NCBI GenBank assembly: GCA_946499885.1
Contig: CAMMTN010000011.1
Coordinates: forward strand, 12,224 to 44,223
DNA length: 32,000 nucleotides
Source of the DNA: an uncultured Clostridium sp.
GTDB taxonomy: Bacteria > Bacillota > Clostridia > TANB77 > CAG-508
Reading direction: 5' to 3'
Part shown: positions 2,998 to 28,899 of the stretch, piece by piece
Layout of the letters: each line of letters starts with the position of its first letter
Position numbering within the stretch: the stretch's first letter is position 1
Notes under the pieces: generated by a model
Database searches by the model: none
The model's input: only the letters and a program-made list of their open reading frames with translations
What the model was told of the DNA's origin: nothing
Position numbers and translations under genes: made by a program

Positions 2998-3246
2998 ATG
3001 TACGTACATATTGGAAAAGAAACTATAATTAAATCAGAGGAGATTATAGCTATTTTAGATATAGAATCATTACAAAAAAAGAAAAATTTAGAAGAAGTAT
3101 TACAAAATTTGAAAATTAGTGATAATATAATAGATGTATCAGAAGGGAAAAAGAAATCTTTAGTAATTATACATAAAGAAAACAAAAATTTAGGATATAT
3201 TACAAATATTTCTACAACAACATTGGGAAGAAGAGCTGAAAAATAA
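2998..3246 (+). CDS. remB: DUF370 / RemB (YaaB) family small protein
   Basis: 82 aa between recF and gyrB, the conserved Firmicute position of yaaB/remB. RBS GGAGGAATT precedes the ATG. The N-terminus MYVHIGKETIIKSEEIIAILD is typical of DUF370. Confidence 0.75.
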   Translation: MYVHIGKETIIKSEEIIAILDIESLQKKKNLEEVLQNLKISDNIIDVSEGKKKSLVIIHKENKNLGYITNISTTTLGRRAEK

Positions 3247-3258
3247 AAGGCAAAATAG

Positions 3259-5184
<1,926 letters not shown>

Positions 5185-5192
5185 GAAAACGA

Positions 5193-5232
5193 GACCTGTT
5201 TTTTGAGAAGTAAGAAAACAGGTCCTGTTTTA
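5193..5232 (+). terminator. Intrinsic terminator after gyrB
   Basis: Hairpin GACCTGTTTT (5193-5202) / AAAACAGGTC (5215-5224) followed by CTGTTTT. Confidence 0.7.
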
Positions 5233-5287: not shown

Positions 5288-5474
5288 ATAAAGCATAATT
5301 AATTCAAAATAATTTTTTTCAGTTATTTTTTTATTCTAAATTAATCCAAAATAAAATTTAACTATTATATAGGTAGGAGATGATAATATAAAAAATAAAA
5401 TTAAAAACAATAAAAATTTATCTACACAAAATTGGCTAAAAATAGAAGATATATTAGACAATGGAATTATAAAA

Positions 5475-5972
5475 ATGAAAAATAATAAATATTTAAAAAT
5501 AATTAAAATAAAGCCAATTAATTTTAATTTAAAATCAGAACTAGAAAAAGAAGCAATATTAAATTCATATAAAATATTTTTAAAAACATGTAATTTTAAT
5601 TTCCAAATTTTAATTCAAAGTAATAAAGAAGATTTATCTAATCATTTTTCTCAAATAATTAATAATTTAAATCAAGAAGAAAAAAATATCCAAGAAATAT
5701 CAAATAAATATATAAATTATATAAAAGAATTAAATAATAATAAAAAATCATCTTCAAAAAATTATTATATAATAATTAATTATGAAAATAAAAATAATGA
5801 AAATATTGATATTGATTCTTATGCAACAGAAGATTTAAATAATAAATATTTTAAAATAAAAGACTGTTTATCAAGGTGTGGAAATACTGCAATAGACATA
5901 TTAGATAAAAAACAAATAATAAAAATAATTTTTTCTTTTATTAATACAAGAATATATTTTAATAATAATTAA
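5475..5972 (+). CDS. virB4: VirB4-family conjugation ATPase, N-terminal domain encoded as a separate cistron (frame is open and motif-bearing from 5373)
   Basis: KIIKIKPINFNLKSELEKEAILNSYKIFLKTCNFNFQILIQSN matches the N-terminal pattern of Firmicute VirB4 proteins (Tn916 Orf16 / TcpF / PrgJ type, recalled from memory). The motif continues upstream of the first ATG (STQNWLKIEDILDNGIIK). Confidence 0.65.
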   Translation: MKNNKYLKIIKIKPINFNLKSELEKEAILNSYKIFLKTCNFNFQILIQSNKEDLSNHFSQIINNLNQEEKNIQEISNKYINYIKELNNNKKSSSKNYYIIINYENKNNENIDIDSYATEDLNNKYFKIKDCLSRCGNTAIDILDKKQIIKIIFSFINTRIYFNNN

Positions 5973-7089
5973 AAAAATATAAAATAAAAATAAATTAAAA
6001 TTAAATAAAAAAATAAATATAAAATTATATTAATGAAAAAATAAAAAGGCTTAAAACAAAAAATAAAAGGATAAAAAAATTAGAAAATAATAAAAAAATA
6101 TAAAATCAAATAATATTAATAAAAAATTAAAGATAAAAATATAAAAAATAGATAATAAAAAAATAATAAATTAAAAAAAGAAAAAATATAAAAAATATAG
6201 ATAAGAAAAAATAATATGACGTAAACTATAATAACATAAGAATAATTTCAAGAAACAGAAATAATTTGTATGAAATAAGATAAGTTAATAAAAAGATAAA
6301 AGTTATACAAAGAAAATATAAGGATAAAATTGAGAAGAGGTAAAATGTATAAAATATTGTCAAAAAGATATTAAAAAATAATTGCAAATTAAAGTTCGAA
6401 CAAATTTAATCAAAACTAAAAAAAGTAAAATAATTTATAGTAAACAAAGATGAGAAAGAATATAGCAAAAACAATATAAAAATATCAAGAAAATATTATA
6501 AAAAAGTGTATCGGGCTGGTAGAAAAATAGAAAAGTAATTAAATTGAAATAGAAAAAACAATAGTAAACATAATATAAAAATAAATGAGATTTAAAATTA
6601 CAAAAAATTAAAAAGATATATTGAGGTAAAGTATGAATTTAACTAGCTATATAAAAAATAACAAAAAGACAAATAACTAGTTGCAAATTTTAAAAGTTAT
6701 AATTTTATTAAAGTAGAGGATAGAATCTGAATAATTTAGAAATAAGACCAAAGAAAATAATATTAGATATGTGAAACGATACAAAAAAACAATTAACATA
6801 ACATAAAAAACTATAAAATTATAGTTGCAAAAGGGAATGACAAAAGACAGTAGCTATTACATAAAGAAGGAAGAAAATTACAAAAACAAAAGGTAATTAA
6901 TTATTATAAAAAACAAATAAATTAATAAAAAATAAAATATAAATATAATTAAATAATTGTAAAATATAAAATATTAAAAATAATAAAGATTAATTATTAA
7001 ATTAAACAAAAATAAAATTTAATTTAATAAAATTATAAAATAAATAACAAAAAAATAATTAAAAAAATTAATTTATTCAGGAGGAAAAA
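5973..7089 (+). other. 1.1 kb ORF-free, A/purine-rich spacer between the two VirB4 cistrons
   Basis: The six-frame track shows no ORF of 60 aa or more on either strand. The flanks (about 5973-6230 and 6900-7075) are almost pure A/T low complexity with A far exceeding T on the + strand. The centre contains G but very little C or T. Confidence 0.8.
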
Positions 7090-8925
7090 ATGAAATTAAT
7101 AAAAAATAAAAATAAAGAAAAAAATAATAAAAAAACAAATAAACTTGAATTTTTAGAAGGTTGTTTTTCAGAAAAAGATTTATTAGCACCATCATATATT
7201 AATTTATCTAATCCGAAATATATAGAAATAGATAATAATTATTATTCATCATTATTATTAATAAATTATTTTAGAGAACAAAATGAATTAATATTAAAAT
7301 CTTTAATAGATACAAATATAGATGTAAATATTTCAATTTTTTATGAAAAACAAGATACATATAAAACAATTAGAGAGCTTACATATCATATTGGAAATGT
7401 TGGGGCAGACTTAAAAGGAAATAATCAAAATAGACAAGATATTGAAATTGCAGCATTTACATATAATGACGCAAAATATATTAGAAAAGAATTGCAAATA
7501 AATAATGAAGAATTATATTATTTATATATTTATATTAATACATTTTCACAAAATACTAAAGAATTAGAAAATATATTAAATAAAATAGAAGGAATAATAG
7601 AATCAAAAGGTATTCAAGTAAGAAGAGCATACTTTAGACAAGAAGAAGCATATAGAGCCTGTTTACCATTTATGGAAAATCATAAATTATTAAAAGAAGT
7701 TACAAAAAGAAATATATTAACAAGTGGATTAGTAGCAACATATCCTTTTATTTCATCAGCTATTTTCGATGAAAACGGAATTTTTGTAGGAACTAATATT
7801 TATAATAAATCATTAGTATTTATTGATAGATATAATACAAATAAATATAAAAATGCAAATATGTGTATATTTGGAACATCAGGCGCAGGAAAGTCATTTT
7901 ATACAAAATTGTTAATTTTAAGATATAGGCTTATGGGAATCCACCAATATATAATAGATCCAGAAAGAGAATATAATAACTTATGCAATAATTTAAATGG
8001 AACACTATTAAAAATAGGACCTGGATCTAACACATATATTAATATTTTTGATATTAGAAAAGAAAGTATTGAAGATAATGAAAAGGGATATTTAGCAAAT
8101 AAAATAGGAAAATTAATAGGATTTTTTAATTTGATTTTTGGAAAAATAAATGAAGAAGAAAAAGCAATTTTAGAAGAAAAATTAATCGAATTATATAAAT
8201 TAAAAAATATAACTTTTGATGATAAAACTTTATATAAAGAATTAGAAAATAAAACAGATAATAATTTTATATTTAAAGAAAGTATAGATATGCCAATTTT
8301 AGAAGATTTTTATAATTTACTTGATAAAGATGAAAAAACAAAAATATTTAAAATAAAATTAATACCTTTTATTAAAGGCTCATTAAAATTTTTTAATAAT
8401 TATACAAATGTAGAATTAGATAATAAATTAATAGTTGCAGATGTGTATGAATTAGGTGAAGAAAATTTAAAATATGGAATGTATTTATTTACAGATTTAT
8501 TTTGGGACAAAATAAAAAAAGATAGAAAAATAAAAAAAGCTATTTATTTAGATGAAATATGGAGATTAATAGGTGTAACATCTAATAAGGATGTGGCAAG
8601 TTTTATTTATAAAATATTTAAAACAATTAGAAAATATGGAGGAAGTGGAGTAGCTATAACTCAAGATATATCAGATATATTTAGTTTAGAAAATGGAACT
8701 TATGGAAAAAGCATTTTAAATAATTCAAGTATAAAAACATTTTTTTCTTTAGAAGAAGAAAATATAAAAATATTAGAACAATATACTAATTTATCCGAAA
8801 AAGAAAAAATAGAAATAAAATCTTTAAAAAGAGGAGAATGTTTAATGTTTGTTGGAGATGAACACATATTAAATAAAATAGAGTCAGCTGATTTCGAAAG
8901 AGAAATAATAGAAAATAAAAATTAA
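7090..8925 (+). CDS. virB4: VirB4-family conjugation ATPase, central and C-terminal ATPase part
   Basis: Strong RBS AGGAGG 6 nt before the ATG. LLAPSYINLSNPKYIEIDNNYY matches the family segment that follows the N-domain. Walker A FGTSGAGKSFYTK (7873-7896 encodes GTSGAGKS), Walker B AIYLDEIW, and ITQDISD. Confidence 0.85.
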   Translation: MKLIKNKNKEKNNKKTNKLEFLEGCFSEKDLLAPSYINLSNPKYIEIDNNYYSSLLLINYFREQNELILKSLIDTNIDVNISIFYEKQDTYKTIRELTYHIGNVGADLKGNNQNRQDIEIAAFTYNDAKYIRKELQINNEELYYLYIYINTFSQNTKELENILNKIEGIIESKGIQVRRAYFRQEEAYRACLPFMENHKLLKEVTKRNILTSGLVATYPFISSAIFDENGIFVGTNIYNKSLVFIDRYNTNKYKNANMCIFGTSGAGKSFYTKLLILRYRLMGIHQYIIDPEREYNNLCNNLNGTLLKIGPGSNTYINIFDIRKESIEDNEKGYLANKIGKLIGFFNLIFGKINEEEKAILEEKLIELYKLKNITFDDKTLYKELENKTDNNFIFKESIDMPILEDFYNLLDKDEKTKIFKIKLIPFIKGSLKFFNNYTNVELDNKLIVADVYELGEENLKYGMYLFTDLFWDKIKKDRKIKKAIYLDEIWRLIGVTSNKDVASFIYKIFKTIRKYGGSGVAITQDISDIFSLENGTYGKSILNNSSIKTFFSLEEENIKILEQYTNLSEKEKIEIKSLKRGECLMFVGDEHILNKIESADFEREIIENKN

Positions 8926-8949
8926 TAAAAAAATTAAAAAGGAAAAAAT

Positions 8950-10146
8950 ATGAAAAAAATAATTACAGCACTTGGTAATGAAAAAATATATAATATATTG
9001 AAACAAGAAAATGATATTGAAATTATAGTAAATGATATTCAATATAAAGAAGGAATAATAGAAGTATTAGAAAAATATTTTGACATTGATTTTATTATAA
9101 TAAATAATTTGCTACAAGGAGAAATATCATTAGAAGATTTAATTAAAAAAATAATAAAAATTAATAATAATATAAAAATAATTTTAATTATAGAAAAAAA
9201 GAATGAAGAAATAAATAATAATGGTATATATAAAATTTTATATAATAATGAAAATTTAATAAGACAAATAATTGAAATTATAAATGGAAATAAATATGAT
9301 ATTGAAATAAAAAATGAAAATAACAATTTAAAAAATATTATTTCAAAAAAAGATAAAAAAATAAAAAATAAATTAAATTCAAATAAAATAAATTTTATAA
9401 AAATTAATAAATTAATATTAAATAAATTAAAAATAAAATTATTTAATATTAATAATAAAAAAATAGATAATAATGTTTCAAGAATAATTACTGTAACTGG
9501 TCCAAATGGAGTAGGGAAAAGCATTATATCTGCAAATTTAGCAAAAATAAATATTTATTCTAAAAATAAAATTTTAATAATTGATTTTAATCTTAATAAT
9601 TATTCTATTAGTACTATTCTAGGTGCAAAAAAATATCCAATAAAAAATAGTAAAAATATATTAGAAAATATTATAAAAATAAATAAAAGAATATACTTGA
9701 TTTTAGGAGAATTTTTATTAAATTCAGAAAATAAAATTGCTAAAGAAAAAATAGAAAAATTAAAAAATAATTATGATTTAATAATTATAGATTTAAGCCC
9801 ATATAATTGTGTTAAAAATCTAATAGATTTATTTAATTTTAGTGATTTTAATTTATTTTTATCAGATACTAATTTTTTAGAAATAAGTAAAACAATTAAT
9901 TTATTAAATATATTTATAAATAAATATAAAATAAATAAAAATAAATTTAGTATTTTATTTAATAAATATAATTTAAAATCAATTAATTATAAATTATTAG
10001 AAAAAATATTCTCAGAGTTTAAAATAATAGGATATTTAAAATTTAATAATAATTATAATAAATTAATAAATAAAAATAAAAAGAATTTTGGAGGTGAGAA
10101 AAAAATAAGAAACGAATATTTATATATAAATAAAAAATTAAAATAA
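8950..10146 (+). CDS. CpaE/TadZ-like protein: atypical receiver-like N-domain, N/K-rich low-complexity linker, MinD/ParA-type P-loop ATPase
   Basis: The N-terminal ~115 aa show an alternating beta/alpha pattern (KIITALG..IEIIV..DFIIINN..KIILII) without the acidic pocket. The P-loop is VTGPNGVGKSIISANLA (aa 181-197) and the Walker B-like segment is DLIIIDLSP. Confidence 0.55.
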   Translation: MKKIITALGNEKIYNILKQENDIEIIVNDIQYKEGIIEVLEKYFDIDFIIINNLLQGEISLEDLIKKIIKINNNIKIILIIEKKNEEINNNGIYKILYNNENLIRQIIEIINGNKYDIEIKNENNNLKNIISKKDKKIKNKLNSNKINFIKINKLILNKLKIKLFNINNKKIDNNVSRIITVTGPNGVGKSIISANLAKINIYSKNKILIIDFNLNNYSISTILGAKKYPIKNSKNILENIIKINKRIYLILGEFLLNSENKIAKEKIEKLKNNYDLIIIDLSPYNCVKNLIDLFNFSDFNLFLSDTNFLEISKTINLLNIFINKYKINKNKFSILFNKYNLKSINYKLLEKIFSEFKIIGYLKFNNNYNKLINKNKKNFGGEKKIRNEYLYINKKLK

Positions 10147-10170
10147 ATGTAATAAAGGGAGAGGATAATT

Positions 10171-10890
10171 ATGCAATTAGAAAATAATATGGAAATAAAT
10201 AATAATTTAAATGAAATTGTTAGTGAAAAAGAACAAAATAGTTTTCTTAATTCAACATTAGGAAAAGTTGTAGATTCTGCAATAGATGTAGGTTTAAGAA
10301 TGGTTCTACCAGATTTTATAGAAGATGGAACAATAGCAGTAAAAAATGCTCTTTTGCAAGGCGGGCTAAAAGAAGGAATAGATACAGCAATAAATGGAGC
10401 AATTAGTTTAGGAAAAAGTGTGTTAGGAATATTTACAGGAAAATTTGATGATATTTCTCAAGCAAGAAATGCTATAAAAAGTGGAGGAATAATAGATGGA
10501 ATATCAGATGTTTTAGATAAAGTAATAAACAAAACTAGCTCATCGGGAATAATTGACAAAAATATAGCAAATCTTATAAGCAACGGTAAAGATGCAATAT
10601 TGGATAGTGTAACAAACAAGATAGAAGATGAATTTACAAAACAAATTGATTCAGCAGAAAAGCTTGCAAAATATGAAACAAATTGGAAAGAATATTTTAA
10701 AAATAAAGATTTTAAAGGAATGCAAAGGGAATACGATAAAATAAAAGACAAAATAAAAGAATTATTGCCAATAGAAAATACTTTAAAAGAAGCAAGAGTA
10801 ATAGAAAATTTACATACATTAATAAAAAATAATGGACAAGATTTTAATTTGACAAAAGAACAATTAGAATTAGCAAATATGTTAAGCTAA
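10171..10890 (+). CDS. Hypothetical protein (helical, with internal G-[IL]-x-D/E-G-I repeats)
   Basis: 239-aa ORF with strong RBS GGGAGAGG and its own terminator. Composition is ordinary compared with its neighbours. No family recognised. Confidence 0.6.
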   Translation: MQLENNMEINNNLNEIVSEKEQNSFLNSTLGKVVDSAIDVGLRMVLPDFIEDGTIAVKNALLQGGLKEGIDTAINGAISLGKSVLGIFTGKFDDISQARNAIKSGGIIDGISDVLDKVINKTSSSGIIDKNIANLISNGKDAILDSVTNKIEDEFTKQIDSAEKLAKYETNWKEYFKNKDFKGMQREYDKIKDKIKELLPIENTLKEARVIENLHTLIKNNGQDFNLTKEQLELANMLS

Positions 10891-10894
10891 GTAA

Positions 10895-10930
10895 AAAACT
10901 AGCAAATTCTTTAGAATTTAGCTAGTTTTC
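10895..10930 (+). terminator. Intrinsic terminator ending the insert operon
   Basis: AAAACTAGCAAATTC (10895-10909) pairs with GAATTTAGCTAGTTTT (10914-10929), with one bulge. Loop TTTA and a T-run. Confidence 0.65.
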
Positions 10931-10932
10931 AC

Positions 10933-10962
10933 TTGCAAAAATAAGCTATTTTATAGTATAAT
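10933..10962 (+). promoter_or_regulatory. Candidate gyrA promoter
   Basis: TTGCAA (10933-10938), 18 nt, TATAAT (10957-10962), about 45 nt upstream of the gyrA ATG. Confidence 0.5.
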
Positions 10963-11006
10963 ACACTTGTATTTAAAACATATGTGTGAAAGGACGGAAA
11001 ACAAAA

Positions 11007-13454
11007 ATGGAAGAAAATGAAGGAAAAATCATTGAAAGAAATATTGAACAAGAAATGAAAACATCATATATTGATTATGCAATGAGTGTTATTGTTTCTC
11101 GTGCACTTCCTGATGTAAGAGATGGTTTAAAACCAGTACATAGAAGAATATTATATGCTATGTATGAAGATGGTATAACTTCTGATAAAGCTTATAGGAA
11201 AAGTGCAAATACAGTTGGTTCTGTTTTAGGAAGATATCATCCTCATGGAGATGCTTCTGTATATGATGCTATGGTAAGAATGGCACAAGACTTTTCTCTT
11301 AGATATCCATTAATAGATGGTCATGGAAACTTTGGTTCAATTGATGGAGACTCAGCAGCTGCTATGAGGTACACAGAAGCTAGAATGTCAAAAATATCTG
11401 AAACAATGCTTACTGATATAGAAAAAAATACAGTAGATTTTATGCCAAACTATGATGACAGATTACAAGAGCCAACAGTATTACCATCAAAAATACCAAC
11501 TCTTCTAATTAATGGGTCATCAGGGATTGCAGTTGGAATGGCAACAAATATACCACCACACAATTTAACAGAGGTAATAAATGGTATTGTAAAAATTATT
11601 GATTCAGATAATGTTACAGATGAAGAACTAATGGCAATAATAAAAGGACCAGATTTTCCTACAGAAGGATTAATTTTAGGAAGAGAAGGTATAAAAGAAG
11701 CTTATACAACAGGTAAAGGTAAAATTACAATGAGAGCAGAGGCAGAAATAGAAGAAATGAGTGGAAATAAACAAAGAATTATTGTAAGCTCTTTACCATA
11801 CCAAGTAAATAAGGCTAAATTAATTGAAAATATTGCAAATTTAGTTAAAGAAAAAAGAATTGAAGGAATATCAGAAGTAAGAGATGAATCTGATAGAGAA
11901 GAAAAAGTAAGAGTTGTAGTTGAACTAAAAAGAGATGTTAATGCACAAGTTATACTAAATCAACTATATAAATTTACTCAAATGCAAGAAACATTTGGTG
12001 TTATTATGCTTGCATTAGTTGATGGTCAGCCTAAAATATTAACTTTAAGACAATGCTTAGAATATTACATAGATCATAGAAAAACTGTTATTCTTCGTAG
12101 AACTCAATTTGACTTAGATAAGGCATTAGCAAGAGCTCATATATTAGAAGGATTAAAAATTGCATTAGACAATATTGATGAAGTAATTGAAATTATTAGA
12201 AATTCTTATGATGATGCAAAAGAAAGATTAATGGAAAGATTTGGTCTTTCAGATATACAAGCTCAAGCAATTCTTGATATGAGATTAAAAACATTATCAG
12301 GTTTACAACGTGAAAAAATAGAAGAAGAATATAATGAATTAATGAAGTTAATTGAACATTTAAGAGCAATACTTGCAAGCGATAGACTAGTATATGACAT
12401 TATAAAAGAAGAATTATTAGAAATAAAAGATAAATACGGTGATGAAAGAAAAACAAAAATAGTAGCAGCTGAAGGAGAATTTGATGTTGAAGATTTAATT
12501 AAAGAAGAACAATGCGTTGTTGCCTTAACTCATTTTGGATATGTAAAGAGAATGCCAATTGATACATATAAAAGCCAAAAAAGAGGAGGAAAAGGAATAA
12601 CAGGAATTGCAACTAGAGAAGAAGATTTTGTAAAACAAATATTTACTGCATCTACGCATGATACTATATTATTCTTTAGTAATAAAGGAAAGGTATATAG
12701 ATTAAGAGGATATGAAATACCAGAAGCAGGAAGAACAGCAAAAGGTACAGCAATAGTAAATCTTTTAGCTTTAGACGGCGGAGAAAAAATATCTGCAGTT
12801 ATTCCAATTTCTAATTTTGCAGATGGAAAATATCTTTTAATGGCAACAAGAAATGGAACTATTAAAAAGACACCTTTAAATGAATATATTTCTGTAAGAA
12901 AAAACGGATTAATAGGAATAACACTAAAAGAAAATGATGAATTAATAGATGTAAGATTAACTGATGGAGAAGATAATGTAGTTCTTGTTACAAGTAAAGG
13001 TATGTGTATTACATTTGATGAAAAAGATGTAAGACCAATGGGAAGAACCTCTCAAGGTGTAATTGGAATTAGAGTTTCAGAAGATGATTTTGTAATAGGA
13101 ATGGAATCTATAATTCAAGGAAGTAAAGCTACACTTCTTGCAATTACTGAAAACGGATTTGGAAAGAGAACAGAACTTGATGAATACAGAGTTCAAACAA
13201 GAGGGGGAAAAGGAGTAATAACATATAAGGTAACTCATAAAACAGGAAATTTAGTTGGAATAAGAATTGCAACAGATGATGAAGATGTAATGCTTATAAC
13301 TGATACAGGTACAATAATTAGACTAAGAGTTGCAGAAATTAGTGTTCTTGGAAGATCTACACAAGGAGTAACTTTAATGAGAACAAATGAAGGTAAAGTA
13401 GTTAGCATAGAAACGATACCAATGGAAGAAAAAAATGAAGATTCAGGTGAATAA
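11007..13454 (+). CDS. gyrA: DNA gyrase subunit A
   Basis: [37 protein letters not shown], the catalytic-Tyr region [10 protein letters not shown], and C-terminal beta-pinwheel repeats. The ORF opens at GTG 10986, but ATG 11007 is the likelier start. Confidence 0.97.
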
Positions 13455-13517
13455 GTATAATTGCAACAATTGAATCATTAGAAATACATGATAAAAACAA
13501 AAATCAAGAAGAAAGAT

Positions 13518-13547
13518 AAAGGACTGAGTTTAATCAGTCCTTTTTTT
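13518..13547. terminator. Bidirectional terminator shared by gyrA (+) and the helicase-loader gene (-)
   Basis: AAAGGACTGA / TCAGTCCTTTTTTT: stem GGACTGA 13521-13527 / TCAGTCC 13534-13540, flanked by an A-run and a T-run. It overlaps the stop codon of the minus-strand gene. Confidence 0.7.
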
Positions 13548-14534
13548 AAATCTAATATCATCTCCGAAAAAATAACAAATATCATAATTTCCAACAATTC
13601 TTGAAACGATACGTTCATCATAATTTGAATATAAATTTTTCAAACTTAAATTAGTAGAAATAATAGTTTTTGTAACTTTATTTTGATTTAATAATCTAGT
13701 ATTAATAATATTAAATAACTCCGTAAATTTCATACCATTCATACATTCTGTTCCTAAATCATCTATTATTAATAAATCGACATTTAAAATACTATCTAGA
13801 ATATTTGAATCCCTTGTTTTTCCAAATCTGTAATCTATTATGGAATCAAGCATAACTGGAGCTGTTTGATATAAGACATTTTTACCTTTTTTCAATAATT
13901 CATTTGCAATTGCACTTGATAAAAATGTTTTTCCTAAACCTGTATTTCCAGTAAATAATAAATTTTTTTGGTTTATATCCTCAAAATTTTCTATAAATTT
14001 AAAACAAATATTTTTTATTAAATTAATATTTTCTCTTGGAGAGATACTAGTATGATACTTATTTTCATCTACTTTATCAGAATAATATAAATCAGAAAAA
14101 TTTTCAAAATTTTGTGTATTTAAATTTGAAATATTTGCTTTATTATATTGCTCATTATAAAGTTTTTGTTTTAAACAACTACACATAGAGGAAGTATAAT
14201 CAATATTTGTTATATATCCTGAATCTTTGCACAGACTACATTCATAATGTGGCTCGAAAAAATCTTCAGAAATATTAATAGATTTTAAAATTTTACTTTT
14301 TTCATTTTTTAATTTAGTAATATTATTATTTAATTCTTCTAATAATTTCTTATCATTATTATTTATTATAGATTTAGTAGTAGAAATAGCAAGAAAAGTT
14401 AATTTATCATCTATTTCTTGAAGTTTAGGGTATTTTTTATATAATTCTTGCTTTCTTAAATTTGCTTCATATTCAGCATTTATTTTTTTCTTATTGTATT
14501 GTGATAATATATTTTTTAATAAAATATCTGACAT
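13530..14534 (-). CDS. DnaI/DnaC-like replicative helicase loader (AAA+ ATPase with N-terminal Cys cluster)
   Basis: Cys motif CSLCKDSGYI...CSC, Walker A FTGNTGLGKTFLSSAIANEL, Walker B DLLIIDDLGTE, and a sensor region TIISTN. Confidence 0.85.
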   Translation of the reverse strand: MSDILLKNILSQYNKKKINAEYEANLRKQELYKKYPKLQEIDDKLTFLAISTTKSIINNNDKKLLEELNNNITKLKNEKSKILKSINISEDFFEPHYECSLCKDSGYITNIDYTSSMCSCLKQKLYNEQYNKANISNLNTQNFENFSDLYYSDKVDENKYHTSISPRENINLIKNICFKFIENFEDINQKNLLFTGNTGLGKTFLSSAIANELLKKGKNVLYQTAPVMLDSIIDYRFGKTRDSNILDSILNVDLLIIDDLGTECMNGMKFTELFNIINTRLLNQNKVTKTIISTNLSLKNLYSNYDERIVSRIVGNYDICYFFGDDIRFKKRTD

Positions 14535-14627
14535 TAAAATTTATATGATATATTTAAAAATAAATAATCATAATCTCCTTTTGCAATATATTTAGGTTTT
14601 TTATAAAGGATGTACCCATAAACCCAA

Positions 14628-15593
14628 TTATTTAAGATTCGCATATAAACTCTCTAAATTATCATAAGTTCTTTGTTCATATTTATTATATCCTGTTTGT
14701 TTTTCTAATTGTTTTACATTTTTATTTTTTTCTTTCATCTCAGATAAAAATTCCTGAACTTCATTTGAAGTTTTAAAACCTCTATCATGCCAATCAGTAA
14801 GTAATTTATCCAAATAATCAAAAGTAGGGTTAGCCTTTGAAGTTGTACGTTTTAATGCAATTTCAATAATATCCATACTAAATCCAAAATCAATAATCCA
14901 TTTTTCTATATACCCATACTCATATTGTGTAAGATTTCTAGAAATTCCTAATTTTTTTGAAATGGTTTTAGCAATTACATTTATTTTTTCTTGTTTTTCG
15001 TAATATGTATCTAAATCATTAAAACTTCTTATATTGTTTTTGTTCCAAGCCTCTGCTACTGTTTGTACATAATTTTTGTGAAGAGCAGATTTATCAAAAC
15101 AATATCCAAACAGAGCAATCATTACTTCTTCATCAAAATTATATTTTTTAAACCATAGTTCTATTTCAGGATACCAAGTAGTAGGCATAAGCCCTGAAAA
15201 ATATTTGTTGTTTATAAAATCAATTGCTTTTGCACGTTTTTGATTTTCAGCAGATTTTTTTAATTGGTCAGCAGATAAAGCAGTTTTAGGTTTATACAAT
15301 TTGTGTAATTCAATTTCTTGAATGCTATTAATAATATATCCAGTATTCTTCTTTGTTATTAAACATTTATCTTCCCAATATTTAACTGCATCTTGAATTG
15401 TTTTTAATGGAAGAACTAATTTTTTAGATAAATCATTTACTTTAATATCTTTATCATATTTTGATAAAAATACCATATATAAATATACTTTTATGAAATC
15501 GCCAGAAGCTTCTGATAAATATTCAGAAAAAAATATATCTGGTAATAAAGTATTTGAAAATAATGATGATAAGTCTGCACTTTCTAATTTCAT
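14628..15593 (-). CDS. DnaD/DnaB-type replication initiation (primosome) protein with two DnaB_2-like repeats
   Basis: The N-terminal LPDIFFSEYLSEASGDFIKVYLYMVF is winged-helix-like. There are two repeats of the DnaD C-terminal type (..ALFGYCFDK..YVQTVAEAWNKNNI.. and ..IIEIALKRT..FDYLDKLLTDWHDRGF..). RBS AAAGGGGGA. Confidence 0.8.
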   Translation of the reverse strand: MKLESADLSSLFSNTLLPDIFFSEYLSEASGDFIKVYLYMVFLSKYDKDIKVNDLSKKLVLPLKTIQDAVKYWEDKCLITKKNTGYIINSIQEIELHKLYKPKTALSADQLKKSAENQKRAKAIDFINNKYFSGLMPTTWYPEIELWFKKYNFDEEVMIALFGYCFDKSALHKNYVQTVAEAWNKNNIRSFNDLDTYYEKQEKINVIAKTISKKLGISRNLTQYEYGYIEKWIIDFGFSMDIIEIALKRTTSKANPTFDYLDKLLTDWHDRGFKTSNEVQEFLSEMKEKNKNVKQLEKQTGYNKYEQRTYDNLESLYANLK

Positions 15594-15624
15594 CTATAGT
15601 TCCCCCTTTAAAAGTATGAATAAG

Positions 15625-15653
15625 ATTATATCATTATATTTGTGTTTTTACAA
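15625..15653 (-). promoter_or_regulatory. Candidate sigma-A promoter of the dnaD-like/dnaI-like operon
   Basis: On the minus strand: TTGTAA (15653-15648), 17 nt, TATAAT (15630-15625), about 30 nt upstream of the ATG at 15593. Confidence 0.55.
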
Positions 15654-15729
15654 TCCAAAAAAAAGGAAAAAATAGTAGAAAAGAGAAGAAAAAGAAAGAA
15701 AAACATAGAAAAAAACAGTTTGTTAAAAT

Positions 15730-16014
15730 TTAATACTTTTTGTATAAATAAATTTTAGGTCTGCAAATATAAAAATATAAATATTGCAATATATATAATA
15801 TTTTTTCATGATTAAATCCTATTATACTAAATAAAGCAAAAGGCAAGAAAAGTATAATAAAAATACTAATTTTTACTGTTATATTAGGTATAAAAAAATA
15901 TACAAAAGCAAATATAATTAATCCCCATATTATATTTAAAATCACAGTAGTATAATCAATAAAACCTAATAACTTACTATTAAAATTATAATTTTGTGGA
16001 AAAATAAATTTCAT
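15730..16014 (-). CDS. PrgI/VirB3-like small conjugation membrane protein
   Basis: FPQNYNFNSKLLGFIDYTTVILNI followed by two TM helices and GFNHEKILYILQYLYFYICRPKIYLY, a PrgI/Tn916 Orf17-like layout. The ORF opens at GTG 16044, but ATG 16014 follows AAAGGAA by 11 nt. Confidence 0.55.
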   Translation of the reverse strand: MKFIFPQNYNFNSKLLGFIDYTTVILNIIWGLIIFAFVYFFIPNITVKISIFIILFLPFALFSIIGFNHEKILYILQYLYFYICRPKIYLYKKY

Positions 16015-16065
16015 ATAAAATACCATTCCTTTCTTTTGGTACACAAGTTATAAAAATAAATAAAA

Positions 16066-16956
16066 TTATTTTATATATCCTTTCAAAACTTTAAAATTCT
16101 GTGCAACATCTGTTGAAATACCTCCTATAAAATGTTGCACATAAGAATTTGCTCTAATTAAAGCATATATAGATCCAATGCACAATATTTTAGATGCAAC
16201 ATCTGGGCTTGCAAAATCTAAAGCAAATATTATTAATAAAACTATAGAAATAAAAGGTTGAACAAATAATAAAGATATAAATATTTTAAACCAAGATTTG
16301 AAAAACCAAGAACTAGAATTATTAATTAGTGTAAGTAAAGCAAAAGGGGTAAGAAGTACAAGAACTTTTACCATTATATATCTAAGAGAATATGAAAAAA
16401 GTAAACTCATAAAACTAGCAGAAATTAAACTTCTTAATAATCCATCAAAAGAAAAAACATTAAGGGTTGTAGAATCAATAGTTATTGTAGAATTTAAGTT
16501 TTCTATTAAATTAGAAAAACAAATTTTTTCACCTAATATATTTTGTCCAATTTCACGAATAGCATCAGAAATAAGAGAATTAAAATAAATAAAAGTTTCA
16601 CAAATAAAATAAGAGCAATTAATAAAAATTCCAAAAATTAATAATTTAAAAACAAATTGATAAGGTCTTTCTATTTGAATACCAGCAAAATATGAATATA
16701 GTAATTTAAAACAATAATATATGCACACAGCAAGTAACAATGAATTTGCAATTAGGATTAAGCTATTATTTGAATTATTATTAAATAATTTTTCAAATAA
16801 AGAATCATTAATAATATTAGTATTAATAAAAGATAATTCATCTAAAGTATTATAAACACTGTTATCAATAGAAGAAAATAATGTATTTAATAAAGTATTT
16901 ATTGTATCAATTATAACCTGTGAAATATTAGTTGTATTTGTAATTGCTTCTTCCAA
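16066..16956 (-). CDS. VirB6/TrbL-like polytopic conjugation channel protein
   Basis: Multi-TM protein (about 6 hydrophobic helices) with the family-like segment SYSLRYIMVKVLVLLTPFALL...WFKSWFKIF. The ORF opens at GTG 16995, but the in-frame TTG at 16956 sits 6 nt after GGAGGT (16968-16963). Confidence 0.6.
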   Translation of the reverse strand: MEEAITNTTNISQVIIDTINTLLNTLFSSIDNSVYNTLDELSFINTNIINDSLFEKLFNNNSNNSLILIANSLLLAVCIYYCFKLLYSYFAGIQIERPYQFVFKLLIFGIFINCSYFICETFIYFNSLISDAIREIGQNILGEKICFSNLIENLNSTITIDSTTLNVFSFDGLLRSLISASFMSLLFSYSLRYIMVKVLVLLTPFALLTLINNSSSWFFKSWFKIFISLLFVQPFISIVLLIIFALDFASPDVASKILCIGSIYALIRANSYVQHFIGGISTDVAQNFKVLKGYIK

Positions 16957-17042
16957 AAATATACCTCCAAAATAAAAATTTGATATAAAAACCACAAAAT
17001 TTATAAATTTAATAATAAAATATTTATTTAATAATTAAAAAA

Positions 17043-17390
17043 TTAATCAATTAAAGATTTAATAGCAGATAATATTAAATTAATTGCTAAAATAAATCCA
17101 TAAGAAAATAAGGATCCTCTGATTAATTTTTTTGCAACTCTAATTCTTTCTTCGTCACCAAAACTAAATTTTTTCATAAATACACCAACACCAACTGCAA
17201 CAGCAGCTGCAGGAGTAGCAAGAGTTAGAAGCCATCCTTCTATATCTTCAAAAGCATCATTTAGTTTTTTTACAAGCTCTGGTTCAGAATCAAAAAGTCC
17301 AGCCAAACTAATATTAGAAAATAAGAAAAATAATATAAATAAAAAGCAAATAGAATAAAAAATAATAAATTTAATTTTTTGTTTTTTCAT
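17043..17390 (-). CDS. VirB2/TrbC-like pilin-type small membrane protein
   Basis: 115 aa with a signal peptide (MKKQKIKFIIFYSICFLFILFFLFSNISLA|G) followed by two hydrophobic helices (LLTLATPAAAVAVGVGVF and LFSYGFILAINLILSAI). Topology and gene position are as for VirB2. Confidence 0.5.
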   Translation of the reverse strand: MKKQKIKFIIFYSICFLFILFFLFSNISLAGLFDSEPELVKKLNDAFEDIEGWLLTLATPAAAVAVGVGVFMKKFSFGDEERIRVAKKLIRGSLFSYGFILAINLILSAIKSLID

Positions 17391-17408
17391 AAAGTATCAT
17401 CCTTTCAA

Positions 17409-18959
17409 TTATTTTTTAAAATAAGGTTTTAATTTTATCTTTTGTGGCTTAATAATTTTATTACCATCAGATAAAAAAGATAAACTACAAAAATTTCCAA
17501 GTTCTTGGGTAAAAAACTTAGTATCATAAACATATTCATAGCTAATTTGTGTGCTAATACTTTCTGATATATTAGAATCAGTTGAATTTAAAGAATTAGT
17601 AATATAGCTATAATTAGTTTCTTTTGCATTTTCAGAAATACTTTTAAATATTTTTTCTTTATCTTCTTTACCAATTTGTTTTTGCGCATTTTCAATAGTA
17701 AAAATATCATCAGTTCTAAACCAAAATTTATTTACTAAATTTTGAATAATTACTTCTACAGAATATTTATTATTTAAAGTGTTTAAAAGGGAAGTATAAC
17801 TTTGTGTTGCTACAATATTTATACATTTTGCTTCTCTACTTTGGGCATAAAATTCACTATCTGAAACAGTTGCGTATTCATGATATTCATCTGATATAAA
17901 TGCAACAGTTCTAGAAGAATTTTTAAAATTGTGCGCAAGTCTTGCCATTACTTCTGATTGAAAATCTAGTTTTAAATAAGTTGCAATTATTTTAGATAAA
18001 ATTTTATACTCAGAAATATTCATATTTAAAACAACTATTTTTCCAGTATTAATTAAATCTTCAAAACCAAAGAAATTAAGTTCTTCTTTTTTGGGGTTAA
18101 AAGTAGAATATATCTCATAATCAGATACAAAGACATTTGTAATACGGGTAATTTCAGACTTTAAAATAGATAGAGTTCTTAAATCTAAAGATAAAAATTC
18201 TTTTTGAAAAAAAGTTAAACTAGATAATAAATTATAAATATCTTCTTTTGAAAATTCATTATTTATAAATTTATTTCGCAGTATTTCTATTTTTTCAAGA
18301 TAATAATTATTTTCAGAAATTAATTTATGTATTTCTTCAAAAGTGACATATCCATTATTATATAATCTACAAAGCTTGATACATTCTGCTAAAATTTGTT
18401 CTACTTTATCAAGCCAATAACTTTCAGAATTATTAGGAGAAAATAAAAGCAAAATTGTTTTTAATCTATTTGCTAAAACTGAAGCTTTTAAATTAGGTTT
18501 ATGTAAAGGATTATATTTATATTTTCCAGCTAAGCTAATTATAATTAAATCATTTTCTCTTTTAGCATTTTTAGCAAATTCAGAAACTTTAATATAATAA
18601 TTTCCTTTAACATCTAAAATAAGCATACCAATTTTATTTGAATTATCTAAAGCAGAATATTTAATTAATTGTTTAGTAAAAGGGTACATTGCACTACTTG
18701 TTTTTCCAGTACCAATAGTTCCTGTAATTAATATATTTTGATATAAACTTTTTTCTGATAAATATATGGGAATATTAGAAGAATAATTATTTCCAACAAA
18801 TAAATTTAAATCTTTTTTTATATTTTTTAAATTATTTTCGTTAAAAAAAGTATATTTATTTTTATTTAATTTTAATTTATAAAAAACAACGGAAATAAAT
18901 TTAAATATTTTTTTAAAATTAAATAAAATTAAAAACTTTTTTAATTTATTTAAAAACAA
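17409..18959 (-). CDS. virD4: VirD4/TraG-type type IV coupling protein (T4CP); annotated from TTG 18959, coding frame continues upstream
   Basis: Walker A LITGTIGTGKTSS, Walker B VAFISDEYHEYA, and ATQSYTSL (the QS..L motif of T4CPs). The N-terminal TM region lies in the same frame at 19280-18960 without an ATG, GTG or TTG. Confidence 0.8.
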   Translation of the reverse strand: MFLNKLKKFLILFNFKKIFKFISVVFYKLKLNKNKYTFFNENNLKNIKKDLNLFVGNNYSSNIPIYLSEKSLYQNILITGTIGTGKTSSAMYPFTKQLIKYSALDNSNKIGMLILDVKGNYYIKVSEFAKNAKRENDLIIISLAGKYKYNPLHKPNLKASVLANRLKTILLLFSPNNSESYWLDKVEQILAECIKLCRLYNNGYVTFEEIHKLISENNYYLEKIEILRNKFINNEFSKEDIYNLLSSLTFFQKEFLSLDLRTLSILKSEITRITNVFVSDYEIYSTFNPKKEELNFFGFEDLINTGKIVVLNMNISEYKILSKIIATYLKLDFQSEVMARLAHNFKNSSRTVAFISDEYHEYATVSDSEFYAQSREAKCINIVATQSYTSLLNTLNNKYSVEVIIQNLVNKFWFRTDDIFTIENAQKQIGKEDKEKIFKSISENAKETNYSYITNSLNSTDSNISESISTQISYEYVYDTKFFTQELGNFCSLSFLSDGNKIIKPQKIKLKPYFKK

Positions 18960-19280
18960 TTTATTTAAATTAAATAATTTTTTGAAAAATACAGAAAAAA
19001 TAAAATAAATAAAATTAGAAATAATAAATGAAGAAAAAATATATGTAATAAAAAATGTGATTTTAATATATTTCCATAAATCAGGATTTTTAATGCAAAT
19101 ATCAAAAGGATGTATTCCATAAGTAATTATTATAGAATTTGAATAAAAAATATTAGAAAATAATTTATATCCAATAAAACAATAAATAAATGAAAAAATA
19201 ATTATAAATAAAAATCGCTTAATAAAAGTACCTCCAATTATAAAATTTAAATAATTTAAAAAATGAAAATTGTAAAGAAA

Positions 19281-19436
19281 TTAATTATTAAAAAAATCAG
19301 ATTTTAATTTTAGTTTAGAACCTTGTAAATTATGAAATAATTTATTATTGAAAAATAAATAAATTGAATAAAGAGTAATAAAAAGATGAATAATAAAAAA
19401 TATAAAGAATAAATCAATTAGGTTTAATTTAAACAC
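19281..19436 (-). CDS. 51-aa hydrophobic ORF, in frame with and probably the original 5' end of the T4CP gene
   Basis: AGGA, 5 nt, then GTG (19436). It reads MFKLNLIDLFFIFFIIHLFITLYSIYLFF... and ends at TAA 19283-19281, which is in the same frame as the downstream T4CP reading frame. Confidence 0.35.
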   Translation of the reverse strand: MFKLNLIDLFFIFFIIHLFITLYSIYLFFNNKLFHNLQGSKLKLKSDFFNN

Positions 19437-19456
19437 CGCCTTCCTAATTTTTACCA

Positions 19457-19485
19457 ATCATACAACATTTTTTTTGTTTTGTCTA
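19457..19485 (-). promoter_or_regulatory. Candidate promoter of T4SS module B
   Basis: On the minus strand: TAGACA (19485-19480), 17 nt, TATGAT (19462-19457). Confidence 0.3.
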
Positions 19486-19524
19486 TAGTTTTCTGAAAAA
19501 TTCGTAAAAAATATTCTAAAACAA

Positions 19525-19577
19525 TATATATCCTCAAAACTCTTAGTATTAAAAATAAAGGTTTTTGAGGATATATA
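19525..19577 (-). terminator. Terminator of the NRPS-kinase operon
   Basis: 15-bp stem TATATATCCTCAAAA (19525-19539) / TTTTGAGGATATATA (19563-19577) with a 23-nt loop, about 20 nt after the kinase stop, followed by a T-rich tract on the minus strand. Confidence 0.5.
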
Positions 19578-19598
19578 CTTTTATTAAAAAATTTAACA

Positions 19599-21407: not shown

Positions 21408-21419
21408 AATTTTAACCTC

Positions 21420-28853: not shown

Positions 28854-28899
28854 TTTAAATGATCCTTTCAAAATATATATTCTCTACAATTACAAAAAA

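Follow-up and report, generated by a model that had tools for sequence, protein, structure and literature searches.

The window analysed here is a stretch of 32,000 nucleotides from an uncultured Clostridium sp. (GTDB lineage TANB77; CAG-508; assembly GCA_946499885.1, contig CAMMTN010000011.1, positions 12,224 to 44,223 of the forward strand), and its subject is a type IV secretion system (T4SS) encoded beside the replication origin. We read this system, with a probability of about 0.72, as a co-opted, chromosomally fixed T4SS of the monoderm (MPF-FATA) type, which would serve as a secretion or contact machine in a clade of low-GC, small-genome gut Clostridia. The retained genes lie 5-19 kb from oriC in two halves. 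On the + strand, a two-piece VirB4 (VirB4N and VirB4C), a TadZ-like ATPase and a protein of 239 residues (o239) stand in that order between gyrB and gyrA. On the - strand the map order is dnaI, dnaD, VirB3-like protein, VirB6-like protein, pilin, VirD4 and an open reading frame (ORF) for a transmembrane protein of 51 amino acids. The locus and its boundary genes are as follows.

3271-5184, + strand: gyrB, from its translation; left boundary of the first T4SS half
5373/5388-5972, + strand: VirB4 N-terminal-domain protein (TrsD or "TraC-like" type), about 195 amino acids
5973-7089: spacer between the virB4 cistrons, ORF-free, A-rich, about 13% GC, low-complexity
7090-8925, + strand: VirB4 C-terminal ATPase, 611 amino acids, with its own GGAGG ribosome-binding site
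8950-10146, + strand: TadZ/CpaE-like ATPase, 398 amino acids, with a receiver-like N-domain, a K/N-rich linker and a ParA/MinD-type P-loop domain
10171-10890, + strand: o239, soluble all-helical protein, 239 amino acids, last gene before gyrA
10986-13454, + strand: gyrA, from its translation
13530-14534, - strand: DnaI/DnaC-like AAA+ helicase loader (NCBIfam PRK06835, 4e-100)
14628-15593, - strand: DnaD/DnaB_2-domain protein (DnaB_2, 1e-28)
15730-16044, - strand: PrgI/VirB3-like protein with two transmembrane helices, 104 amino acids, named from homology to virB4-adjacent genes
16066-16995, - strand: VirB6/TrbL-like polytopic membrane protein, 309 amino acids, at least 4 hydrophobic helices
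17043-17390, - strand: VirB2-like pilin, 115 amino acids, with a signal peptide and two transmembrane helices
17409-19223, - strand: VirD4-type coupling protein, about 604 amino acids, with 2 N-terminal transmembrane helices
19281-19436, - strand: 51-residue ORF with a single transmembrane helix, a GTG start and an AGGAAGG ribosome-binding site, directly 5' of virD4

A preliminary description of this DNA had missed the 51-residue ORF, but its coordinates and gene calls hold, with the same ORFs obtained under the standard code and table 4. The window has 23% GC and the standard code applies.

Conservation and selection across the clade

Relatives were collected by scanning one genome per GTDB species with VirB4C, and the related loci were taken as VirB4 neighbourhoods of ±10 kb (81 loci, about 1.4 Mb in total). 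The scan found VirB4C relatives at 70-100% identity in at least 80 species-level genomes, all of them metagenome-assembled genomes labelled "uncultured Clostridia" from the guts of humans, chickens, rabbits, mice and ruminants; one is a circular chromosome of 1.57 Mb. The split arrangement is the same wherever the contig is long enough (80 species-level genomes). Counting the loci whose sequence extends far enough, gyrB is found upstream of virB4 in 65/65, gyrA downstream in 53/54, and the convergent dnaI-dnaD pair on the - strand in 44/47. The VirB3-like, VirB6-like and pilin genes follow past dnaD in all 10 loci that reach so far, and 34-41 loci carry them overall. The convergent halves around gyrA and dnaI/dnaD that had been pointed out in the window are therefore a layout that recurs in its relatives, and the shared order shows, as far as synteny can date it, that the break into a gyrA-side and a dnaD-dnaI-side unit preceded the divergence of the sampled species.

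The GyrB proteins of the 80 species are 81-98% identical to that of the window, and the T4SS ORFs are intact throughout. Pairwise distances of VirB4 compared with those of GyrB gave a Spearman coefficient of 0.65 (GyrA 0.70, RecF 0.62). Relative to GyrB, VirB4 changes 1.8 times as fast, RecF 2.3 times and DnaD 2.7 times, so that VirB4 is conserved more tightly than RecF or DnaD. The locus is strictly vertically inherited and co-diverges with the core genes of its hosts. It occupies the same site in 80 species, with none of the integrase, element borders or patchy distribution of an integrative and conjugative element (ICE).

Ratios of nonsynonymous to synonymous substitution rates (dN/dS), which are to be read as comparative values only, were obtained against the seven closest relatives and the more distant L049.

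VirD4: 0.06-0.17; 0.26 for L049
VirB4C: 0.11-0.15; 0.23 for L049
VirB4N: 0.19-0.31; 0.52 for L049
VirB3-like: 0.10-0.23 (closest relatives with a value); 0.43 for L049
VirB6-like: 0.16-0.26; 0.47 for L049
o239: 0.11-0.27; 0.45 for L049
Pilin: 0.11-0.35
For comparison, recF: 0.13-0.17; dnaI: 0.11-0.17

Values for these seven locus components are far under 1, with those for L049 running from 0.23 to 0.52, and purifying selection on VirB4 and VirD4 is as strong as on recF and dnaI. The continued selection on VirB4C, VirB6 and VirD4 that had been proposed from the window itself is borne out.

The gaps gyrB-virB4N, o239-gyrA, gyrA-dnaI and dnaD-VirB3-like take sporadic insertions (L012, L013, L014, L020, L022 and L062), around which the conserved gene order is unchanged. 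Judged by eye only, the inserted genes resemble helix-turn-helix/Fic-like, peptidase-like and Mur-ligase/glutamine amidotransferase-like genes, together with genes for a signal peptidase and for surface proteins of the LPXTG type. These gap genes were considered as the missing T4SS parts and rejected as sporadic cargo.

The two-piece VirB4

VirB4 is encoded in two cistrons, for about 190 and about 610 residues, in every relative of the clade. VirB4C has an intact Walker A motif (GTSGAGKS) and Walker B motif (IYLDEIW), kept in 82/82 sequences barring conservative substitutions, and it matches P-loop_TraG (1.6e-22), PDB entry 4AG5 (1.1e-42) and positions 179-731 of the NCBIfam model conju_CD1110 (1.7e-86; 291 bits against a cut-off of 325 that was set for the full-length protein). 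VirB4N matches positions 1-170 of the same model (E 9e-8, 31 bits) and is 38% identical to residues 21-204 of the VirB4 encoded by a conjugative locus, L082. Since the two cistrons match adjoining parts of conju_CD1110, together they make up one VirB4, which agrees with the earlier assignment of a VirB4-family ATPase in two cistrons. A reading of the division as a sign of decay fails, as an identical split virB4 occurs in the conjugative cluster L089 beside an NlpC/P60 hydrolase and a type IV coupling protein (T4CP). Because the split is shared by all relatives and by L089, the two-cistron VirB4 is, on this comparison, ancestral (TrsD/TrsE type) and neither a frameshift nor a product of decay. 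A TrsD/TrsE architecture has been described for the pGO1 subclass and for Patescibacteria (PMC12102498).

The frame of VirB4N is open from 5373 and has its first ATG only at 5475. About 30 residues before this ATG are conserved among relatives, and the gene probably starts at a non-AUG codon, ATA 5388. The start appears to be ATA or ATT, and several relatives have no canonical start. The spacer behind VirB4N contains degenerate A-rich tandem arrays, and its length varies continuously across species from -4 to 1118 nt (L002-L081), the longest being that of the window species and the conspecific L002. The cistron junction is a hot spot for A-rich low-complexity expansion.

Several other accounts of these genes were tried and rejected. 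An RNA gene or intron in the 1.1-kb spacer found no tRNA and no Rfam match in its favour, and the spacer is put down to A-rich low-complexity expansion. Translation with the Mollicute code 4, as a means of fusing the cistrons, yields identical long ORFs. A defence-system reading met with generic HerA/FtsK-type ATPase similarity only in PADLOC, and a phage reading with ATPase-fold matches only in PHROGs.

VirD4 and the 51-residue ORF

The VirD4/TcpA-type coupling protein scores 40.9 bits against TrwB_AAD_bind, above the Pfam cut-off of 20.5 (E 1.6e-10), and also matches TraG-D_C (4.7e-4), which upholds its first identification. Its Walker A (GTIGTGKT) and Walker B (FISDEYHEY) motifs are conserved apart from conservative substitutions, and it is 44% identical to the T4CP of L082; a sequence search against PDB gave no match. 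The protein had been described as reduced to a "body". The open frame reaches 19280, and a two-transmembrane N-terminus (IKRFLFII...) that is conserved in relatives is intact behind ATT 19223, which sits 7 nt after GGAGG and is the apparent start. Many relatives likewise have no AUG at the virD4 N-terminus, and conserved coding sequence 5' of the first ATG/GTG/TTG was also seen in L048, L053, L064 and others. The non-AUG starts of virD4 and virB4N may be a conserved device for low translation.

The 51-residue ORF is kept directly 5' of virD4 in 10/10 loci listed with sequence just past virD4. Its homologues are 52-81% identical, nine of them at E<=2e-6 and that of L030 at 6e-4. The split VirB4, the non-AUG starts and this small ORF are easily mis-called in annotation, and the genes are nameless in public data.

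The pilin, VirB6-like and VirB3-like proteins

The putative identities of the three smaller membrane proteins stand chiefly through homology to genes of L082 and a second T4SS locus, L084, with hidden Markov model (HMM) support that is weak or below threshold. The pilin matches T4SS_pilin at 8e-4 and TrbC at 1.7e-3, both sub-threshold, and is 34% identical to the T4SS_pilin gene product of L082. The VirB6-like protein has no Pfam match of its own and no match in a sequence search against PDB, and its orthologues match TrbL weakly (E 0.04-0.07). It is homologous to a polytopic protein of 316 residues in L082 (24% identity, 2e-6) and has a further homologue in L084 (1e-15). When its structural model was compared with 350,000 PDB chains by Foldseek, the top 5 were all R388 TrwI/VirB6, with weak scores (probability 0.89-0.97, template-modelling score 0.32-0.41, E 0.02-0.07) from a low-confidence model (predicted local distance difference test score, pLDDT, 61).

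The VirB3-like protein has no Pfam match in the window. It is homologous to the genes immediately 5' of virB4 in L082 (106 residues, 33% identity, 7e-11) and in L084 (32% identity, 5e-12), and the L084 homologue matches PrgI at 1.4e-3, below the cut-off. From its sequence, the real start of the VirB3-like protein is likely the ATG at 16014 (MKFIFPQNY...).

Conjugative ancestry and missing partners

The closest full-length VirB4 is that of L082 (849 residues, 47% identity), which is a contiguous element. L082 encodes a relaxase (PF03432), MobC, a VirB3-like protein directly before VirB4, a pilin, a small transmembrane protein, VirD4, an M23 peptidase and a VirB6-like protein; further along it has a TadZ-like gene adjoining RcpC. 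Five components are 33-45% identical between L082 and the window. In the window the VirB3-like gene stands about 7 kb from virB4 on the opposite strand, as had been noticed before. Scans of the window's ORFs with Pfam and NCBIfam found no relaxase, integrase, hydrolase or VirB8-like gene, in agreement with the absence of accessory functions first reported, and neither the window nor the 81 loci gave a match to the relaxase, the MobC or the M23 peptidase of L082 (the last sought by tblastn). No VirB8/PrgL/TcpC-like gene and no VirB1-like hydrolase was found in the window or within ±10 kb in those loci. The system is relaxase-less over ±10 kb.

From the contiguous layout and content of L082, comparison shows that the system descends from a conjugative element of the L082 kind. 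On the way the VirB3-like gene and virB4 came apart, and the neighbourhood lost the relaxase, MobC and M23 hydrolase. The rearranged conjugative history first proposed for the window fits this comparison. In a library clustered at 50% identity, the family of the clade stands apart: ordinary Firmicute VirB4s follow after a gap, at no more than 38% identity. The nearest plasmid VirB4 is 35% identical. Distant low-GC lineages (L085-L087, 44-52% VirB4 identity) also have a split virB4 downstream of gyrB, and because they share this arrangement the association of virB4 with the origin region is older than the sampled clade.

Two further observations concern these distant loci. In L082 (3059-8791), RelA_SpoT-domain and HD_4 proteins stand beside the relaxase of 1121 residues and resemble an alarmone synthetase/hydrolase cargo pair. 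In L083 (285-4137, 28% GC), a T4CP, an sbcD-like gene (Metallophos) and a gene for a protein of 543 residues that is SbcC-like by eye precede a split virB4 and a TadZ-like gene, which would be a further instance of T4SS genes mixed with genes of DNA metabolism.

The TadZ-like ATPase and o239

The 398-residue ATPase matches CbiA (9e-6) and a ParA-like PHROG (4e-10), so that its description as ParA-like stands in part. With soj and parB to the left of dnaA, it is not the partition ParA; it is homologous to a Response_reg+CbiA protein beside RcpC in L082, and in L084 and L090 its homologues are flanked by virB4 on one side and a T2SSE ATPase on the other. It is the least constrained gene of the locus, with dN/dS of 0.5-0.9 over its whole length; the K/N-rich linker taken by itself gives about 1, and the N-domain 0.2-0.4. 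A homologue was not detected in L062, L064, L069, L073 or L080, all of which have o239. The o239 gene itself was found in 66 loci. Its protein gave nothing credible in Pfam, NCBIfam, PHROG or PDB profile searches, and its AlphaFold2 model has a pLDDT of 53. A full-length homologue of o239 follows a T2SSF-like gene in L090/L091 (25% identity, 9e-10).

Elsewhere, split virB4 genes stand directly beside TadZ-like genes and other Tad-type genes, namely T2SSE ATPase (5.5e-25), T2SSF (2.6e-5) and RcpC (L084, L088/L090 and L082), which suggests a T4SS-Tad hybrid module that recurs across lineages. Since the homologues of the TadZ-like protein and o239 sit in such contexts, the + strand half consists of VirB4 and a Tad-like remnant. 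The window keeps only the TadZ-like gene and o239; T2SSE and T2SSF are absent from it, though present at the homologous position in L090 and L084. By this comparison, the Tad-like sub-module of the window is one that has lost its ATPase and platform genes. The adjacencies lie at 2029-11974 in L084, 2277-8776 in L090 and 20481-22550 in L082, and another is in L088; the lineages have 20-40% GC. The L090 module is embedded among housekeeping genes (Com_YlbF, Amidase_3, a tadA-like deaminase and superoxide dismutase).

Comparison with known systems

The closest known analogue is the T4SS of Patescibacteria (Quinonero-Coronel et al. 2025, PMC12102498), which is derived from MPF-FATA, has no relaxase in most cases and frequently adjoins dnaA/dnaN. 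It consists of VirB4, TrsD, PrgI/VirB3, VirB6 and a VirB2-like pilin, and transposon sequencing found it essential for epibiotic growth of Ca. Southlakia epibionticum (PMC12102498). The window agrees with this type in its parts list, some members of which are weakly supported, in having no relaxase nearby, and in its chromosomal place near the origin. Both systems are vertically inherited, MPF-FATA-derived and found in reduced uncultured hosts, and both have a separate TrsD-like protein homologous to the VirB4 N-terminus. They differ in several respects. The host here is a member of the Clostridia, by NCBI labels, and does not belong to the candidate phyla radiation (CPR); VirD4 lies inside the locus and is strongly constrained, whereas CPR t4cp genes are usually distant; there is a single pilin gene in place of the CPR pilin arrays; and the genes form two convergent halves around gyrA and dnaD-dnaI, with Tad-like remnants attached.

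The conjugative MPF-FATA systems of Firmicutes (pGO1/pSK41 Trs, CTn2 CD1110, pCF10 Prg and Tn916, with L082) share with the window a VirB4 of the CD1110 family, a TrsD/TrsE-style split (pGO1/pSK41 Trs) and the presence of VirD4 and of putative PrgI-like and VirB6-like proteins. In contrast to them, the window locus has no relaxase, MobC, hydrolase (M23, NlpC-P60 or CHAP), VirB8/TcpC-like protein or adhesin nearby, shows neither an integrase nor element borders, is fixed in its place, diverges together with the core genes of its hosts, and places its VirB3-like gene far from virB4. It also has a VirB2-like pilin, which the canonical prototypes do not (PMC12102498).

Relaxase-free conjugation machines co-opted for host functions are represented by archaeal Ced/Ted and Helicobacter ComB. 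Ced/Ted has a VirB2-like pilus, VirB6-like CedA and VirB4-like CedB, without a relaxase, and thus shares the pilin, VirB6-like and VirB4-like set (PMC9905601). The window system differs from both in keeping VirD4. ComB, Ced and Ted are not known to use a VirD4-type coupling protein. Among monoderms, the streptococcal type-IVC minimal T4SS (VirB1, VirB4, VirB6 and VirD4) serves in the release of protein or DNA; such systems lie on genomic islands, include a VirB1-like hydrolase and vary among strains. The window system resembles them as a minimal monoderm set with VirB4, a VirB6-like protein and VirD4, but it is core, embedded at the origin, without a nearby hydrolase and pilin-bearing. This type of T4SS is drawn as a comparator in Fig. 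6 of PMC12102498.

A Tad-type pilus cluster with CpaB, CpaF, TadB/C and Flp-type pilins is known from TANB77 (PMC11680825). It comes from the same or a similar type of host (uncultured small-genome gut Clostridia) and shares a ParA-like (COG1192) TadZ-type ATPase with the window, but it is a separate locus and a separate machine. In full-text literature searches no account of a T4SS turned up for TANB77/CAG-508-type bacteria or for the interval between gyrB and gyrA.

Relaxase-less T4SSs co-opted by their hosts had been described in archaea (Ced/Ted), in Helicobacter (ComB) and, in 2025, in Patescibacteria. A large clade of uncultured gut Clostridia now joins them, with the Patescibacteria parts list in a like position close to the origin. 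Such a T4SS has either been domesticated again and again by reduced-genome bacteria, or the systems of Patescibacteria and of this clade go back to a common origin. The source of the VirB2-like pilin in an MPF-FATA system was left unexplained by PMC12102498, and the presence of such a pilin in conjugative relatives like L082 bears on this question. According to the cited papers, TANB77-like bacteria are prevalent gut inhabitants, and response to checkpoint-blockade therapy is associated with the abundance of TANB77; the present system is a candidate for how this unculturable clade depends on or interacts with its neighbours.

Proposed function and alternative explanations

In the proposed mechanism, the VirB3-like and VirB6-like proteins and the two VirB4 pieces would form a membrane translocon, with VirB4 powering assembly of a VirB2-like fibre or conduit across the wall. 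VirD4 would recruit a cytoplasmic substrate (a protein, or DNA already processed by the product of a gene outside the locus) and feed it outward, probably into or onto neighbouring cells, so that the apparatus would act as a contact or exchange device and not as a self-transmitting element. The site beside oriC, without terminators ahead of gyrA or dnaD-dnaI, would bring a high gene dosage and perhaps, through read-through, joint expression with replication genes, and the locus would be costly to delete. The earlier idea of a minimal T4SS fixed at the origin and kept for a non-conjugative role is supported as far as sequence goes.

Several points weigh against this reading. Beyond ±10 kb, the genomes may hold genes for a relaxase, a VirB8/TcpC-like protein or a wall hydrolase, in which case conjugation would still be possible. 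The pilin, VirB6-like and VirB3-like identities draw on HMM matches below threshold, on a structural model of low confidence and on homology to T4SS-locus genes that lack annotation. In this species expression could be low or impaired, given the 1.1-kb spacer and the non-AUG starts of virD4 and virB4N. At such a composition dS is probably saturated or biased, which is why the dN/dS values were taken as comparative. The promoter scan did not rise above its shuffled background (151 found against 142 expected) and is uninformative at 23% GC. Finally, the T4CP was non-essential in the one patescibacterium tested (PMC12102498), and the analogy would leave direction and substrate unsettled.

An extension of the comparison, which we put forward tentatively and consider unlikely, is that among Firmicutes the system would correspond to the T4SS that is essential in Patescibacteria, perhaps as a sister or source lineage of it, and that the clade would be obligate contact-dependent partners or parasites of gut bacteria. 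The suggestion comes from L082, which already joins a VirB2-like pilin to an MPF-FATA backbone. If true, these bacteria would trade macromolecules with a host cell through the system, which would account for the clade having no cultured member.

Functional conjugation or chromosome mobilisation, with DNA donated and the relaxase, oriT, hydrolase and VirB8-like parts encoded elsewhere, is an unlikely alternative. It would account for the conserved VirD4, which is typical of DNA-transferring systems, and for the clearly conjugative ancestry seen in L082, and T4CP and relaxase genes are often located away from virB4 (PMC12102498). However, the ±10-kb neighbourhoods of 80 species contain no relaxase, MobC or hydrolase homologue, plasmids offer no VirB4 closer than 35% identity, and the co-divergence with gyrB leaves no trace of horizontal spread. 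The relaxase-free neighbourhoods and the strict vertical descent are what disfavour self-transfer.

Competence-like DNA uptake, in the manner of H. pylori ComB or archaeal Ced/Ted and with import for repair or nucleotides, we regard as improbable. Ced/Ted demonstrates that relaxase-free conjugation machines with a VirB2-like pilus, CedA and CedB can be domesticated (PMC9905601), the retained pilin, VirB6, VirB3 and VirB4 fit such importers, and a reduced genome might profit from imported nucleotides or DNA. The neighbourhood contains no competence genes. Importers of this sort are not known to use VirD4, whereas here VirD4 is among the most constrained genes; its retention and tight constraint favour export over import of the ComB or Ced kind. 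That the locus is a decaying ICE remnant which survives only through its position between essential genes, the other state considered in the preliminary description, is very improbable. In its favour are the loss of accessory genes, the fragmentation of the cluster, a TadZ-like gene that is nearly neutral and undetected in five loci, a spacer inside virB4 that has grown to 1.1 kb and some non-AUG starts. Against it, synteny holds across the clade, ORFs are intact in 80 species with co-diverging GyrB as little as 81% identical, seven components have dN/dS far under 1, the ATPase motifs are conserved, and unconstrained ORFs of 600 codons would not last in DNA of 12-20% GC.

The origin, transcription and flanking genes

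The remaining features of the window are listed below.

2-205, + strand: 3' end of dnaA (Bac_DnaA_C, 3.3e-19); the window begins inside dnaA
up to 473: dnaA-dnaN oriC element, with 7 DnaA boxes at 308-473
2998-3246: RemA-like gene (PF04025), 82 amino acids, between recF and gyrB
5193-5224, + strand: hairpin resembling an intrinsic terminator, behind gyrB
13518-13543: bidirectional terminator-like hairpin at the convergence point of gyrA and dnaI
19599-21407, - strand: 7TM-PAS histidine kinase, beyond the second T4SS half
21420-28871, - strand: two-module nonribosomal peptide synthetase (NRPS), C-A-T-C-A-T-R (Condensation 5e-195; NAD_binding_4, at the reductase end, 6e-43)
29131-30822, + strand: AMP-dependent ligase near the NRPS

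A search for DnaA boxes returned 21 matches against 11.5 expected, clustered at 308-473 and including a tandem pair of perfect boxes at 456-473 (TTATCCACATTATCCACA). The contig to the left of the window (L092) carries rnpA, yidD, yidC, jag, trmE, gidA, gidB, soj and parB. From the dnaA end, the box cluster and these canonical origin genes, the window start is, by its sequence marks, the true chromosomal origin, and the closeness to oriC first described is confirmed. The + strand order after oriC is dnaN, recF, the RemA-like gene and gyrB. A (CTA)6 microsatellite follows the tandem boxes (456-495) just 5' of dnaN, and the RemA-like gene was detected in only 21 related loci, mostly those of the window's closest relatives.

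Terminator-like hairpins were found in the locus only behind gyrB and at the convergence of gyrA and dnaI; the scan found none that would separate o239 from gyrA or the VirB3-like gene from dnaD. With no intervening terminators, both halves could read through into essential replication genes. Promoter-like sites stand ahead of gyrA (10933-10962) and on the dnaD side (15653-15625).

About 15 kb of consecutive - strand genes lie to the right of oriC (13530-28871: dnaI, dnaD, the second T4SS half, the kinase and the NRPS). They are head-on to the replication forks, which is unusual near a Firmicute origin, and this run of genes suggests an old inversion. The NRPS has an architecture that we take to match the dipeptide-aldehyde NRPSs of gut Clostridia, and such an enzyme is notable for a genome of about 1.5 Mb.

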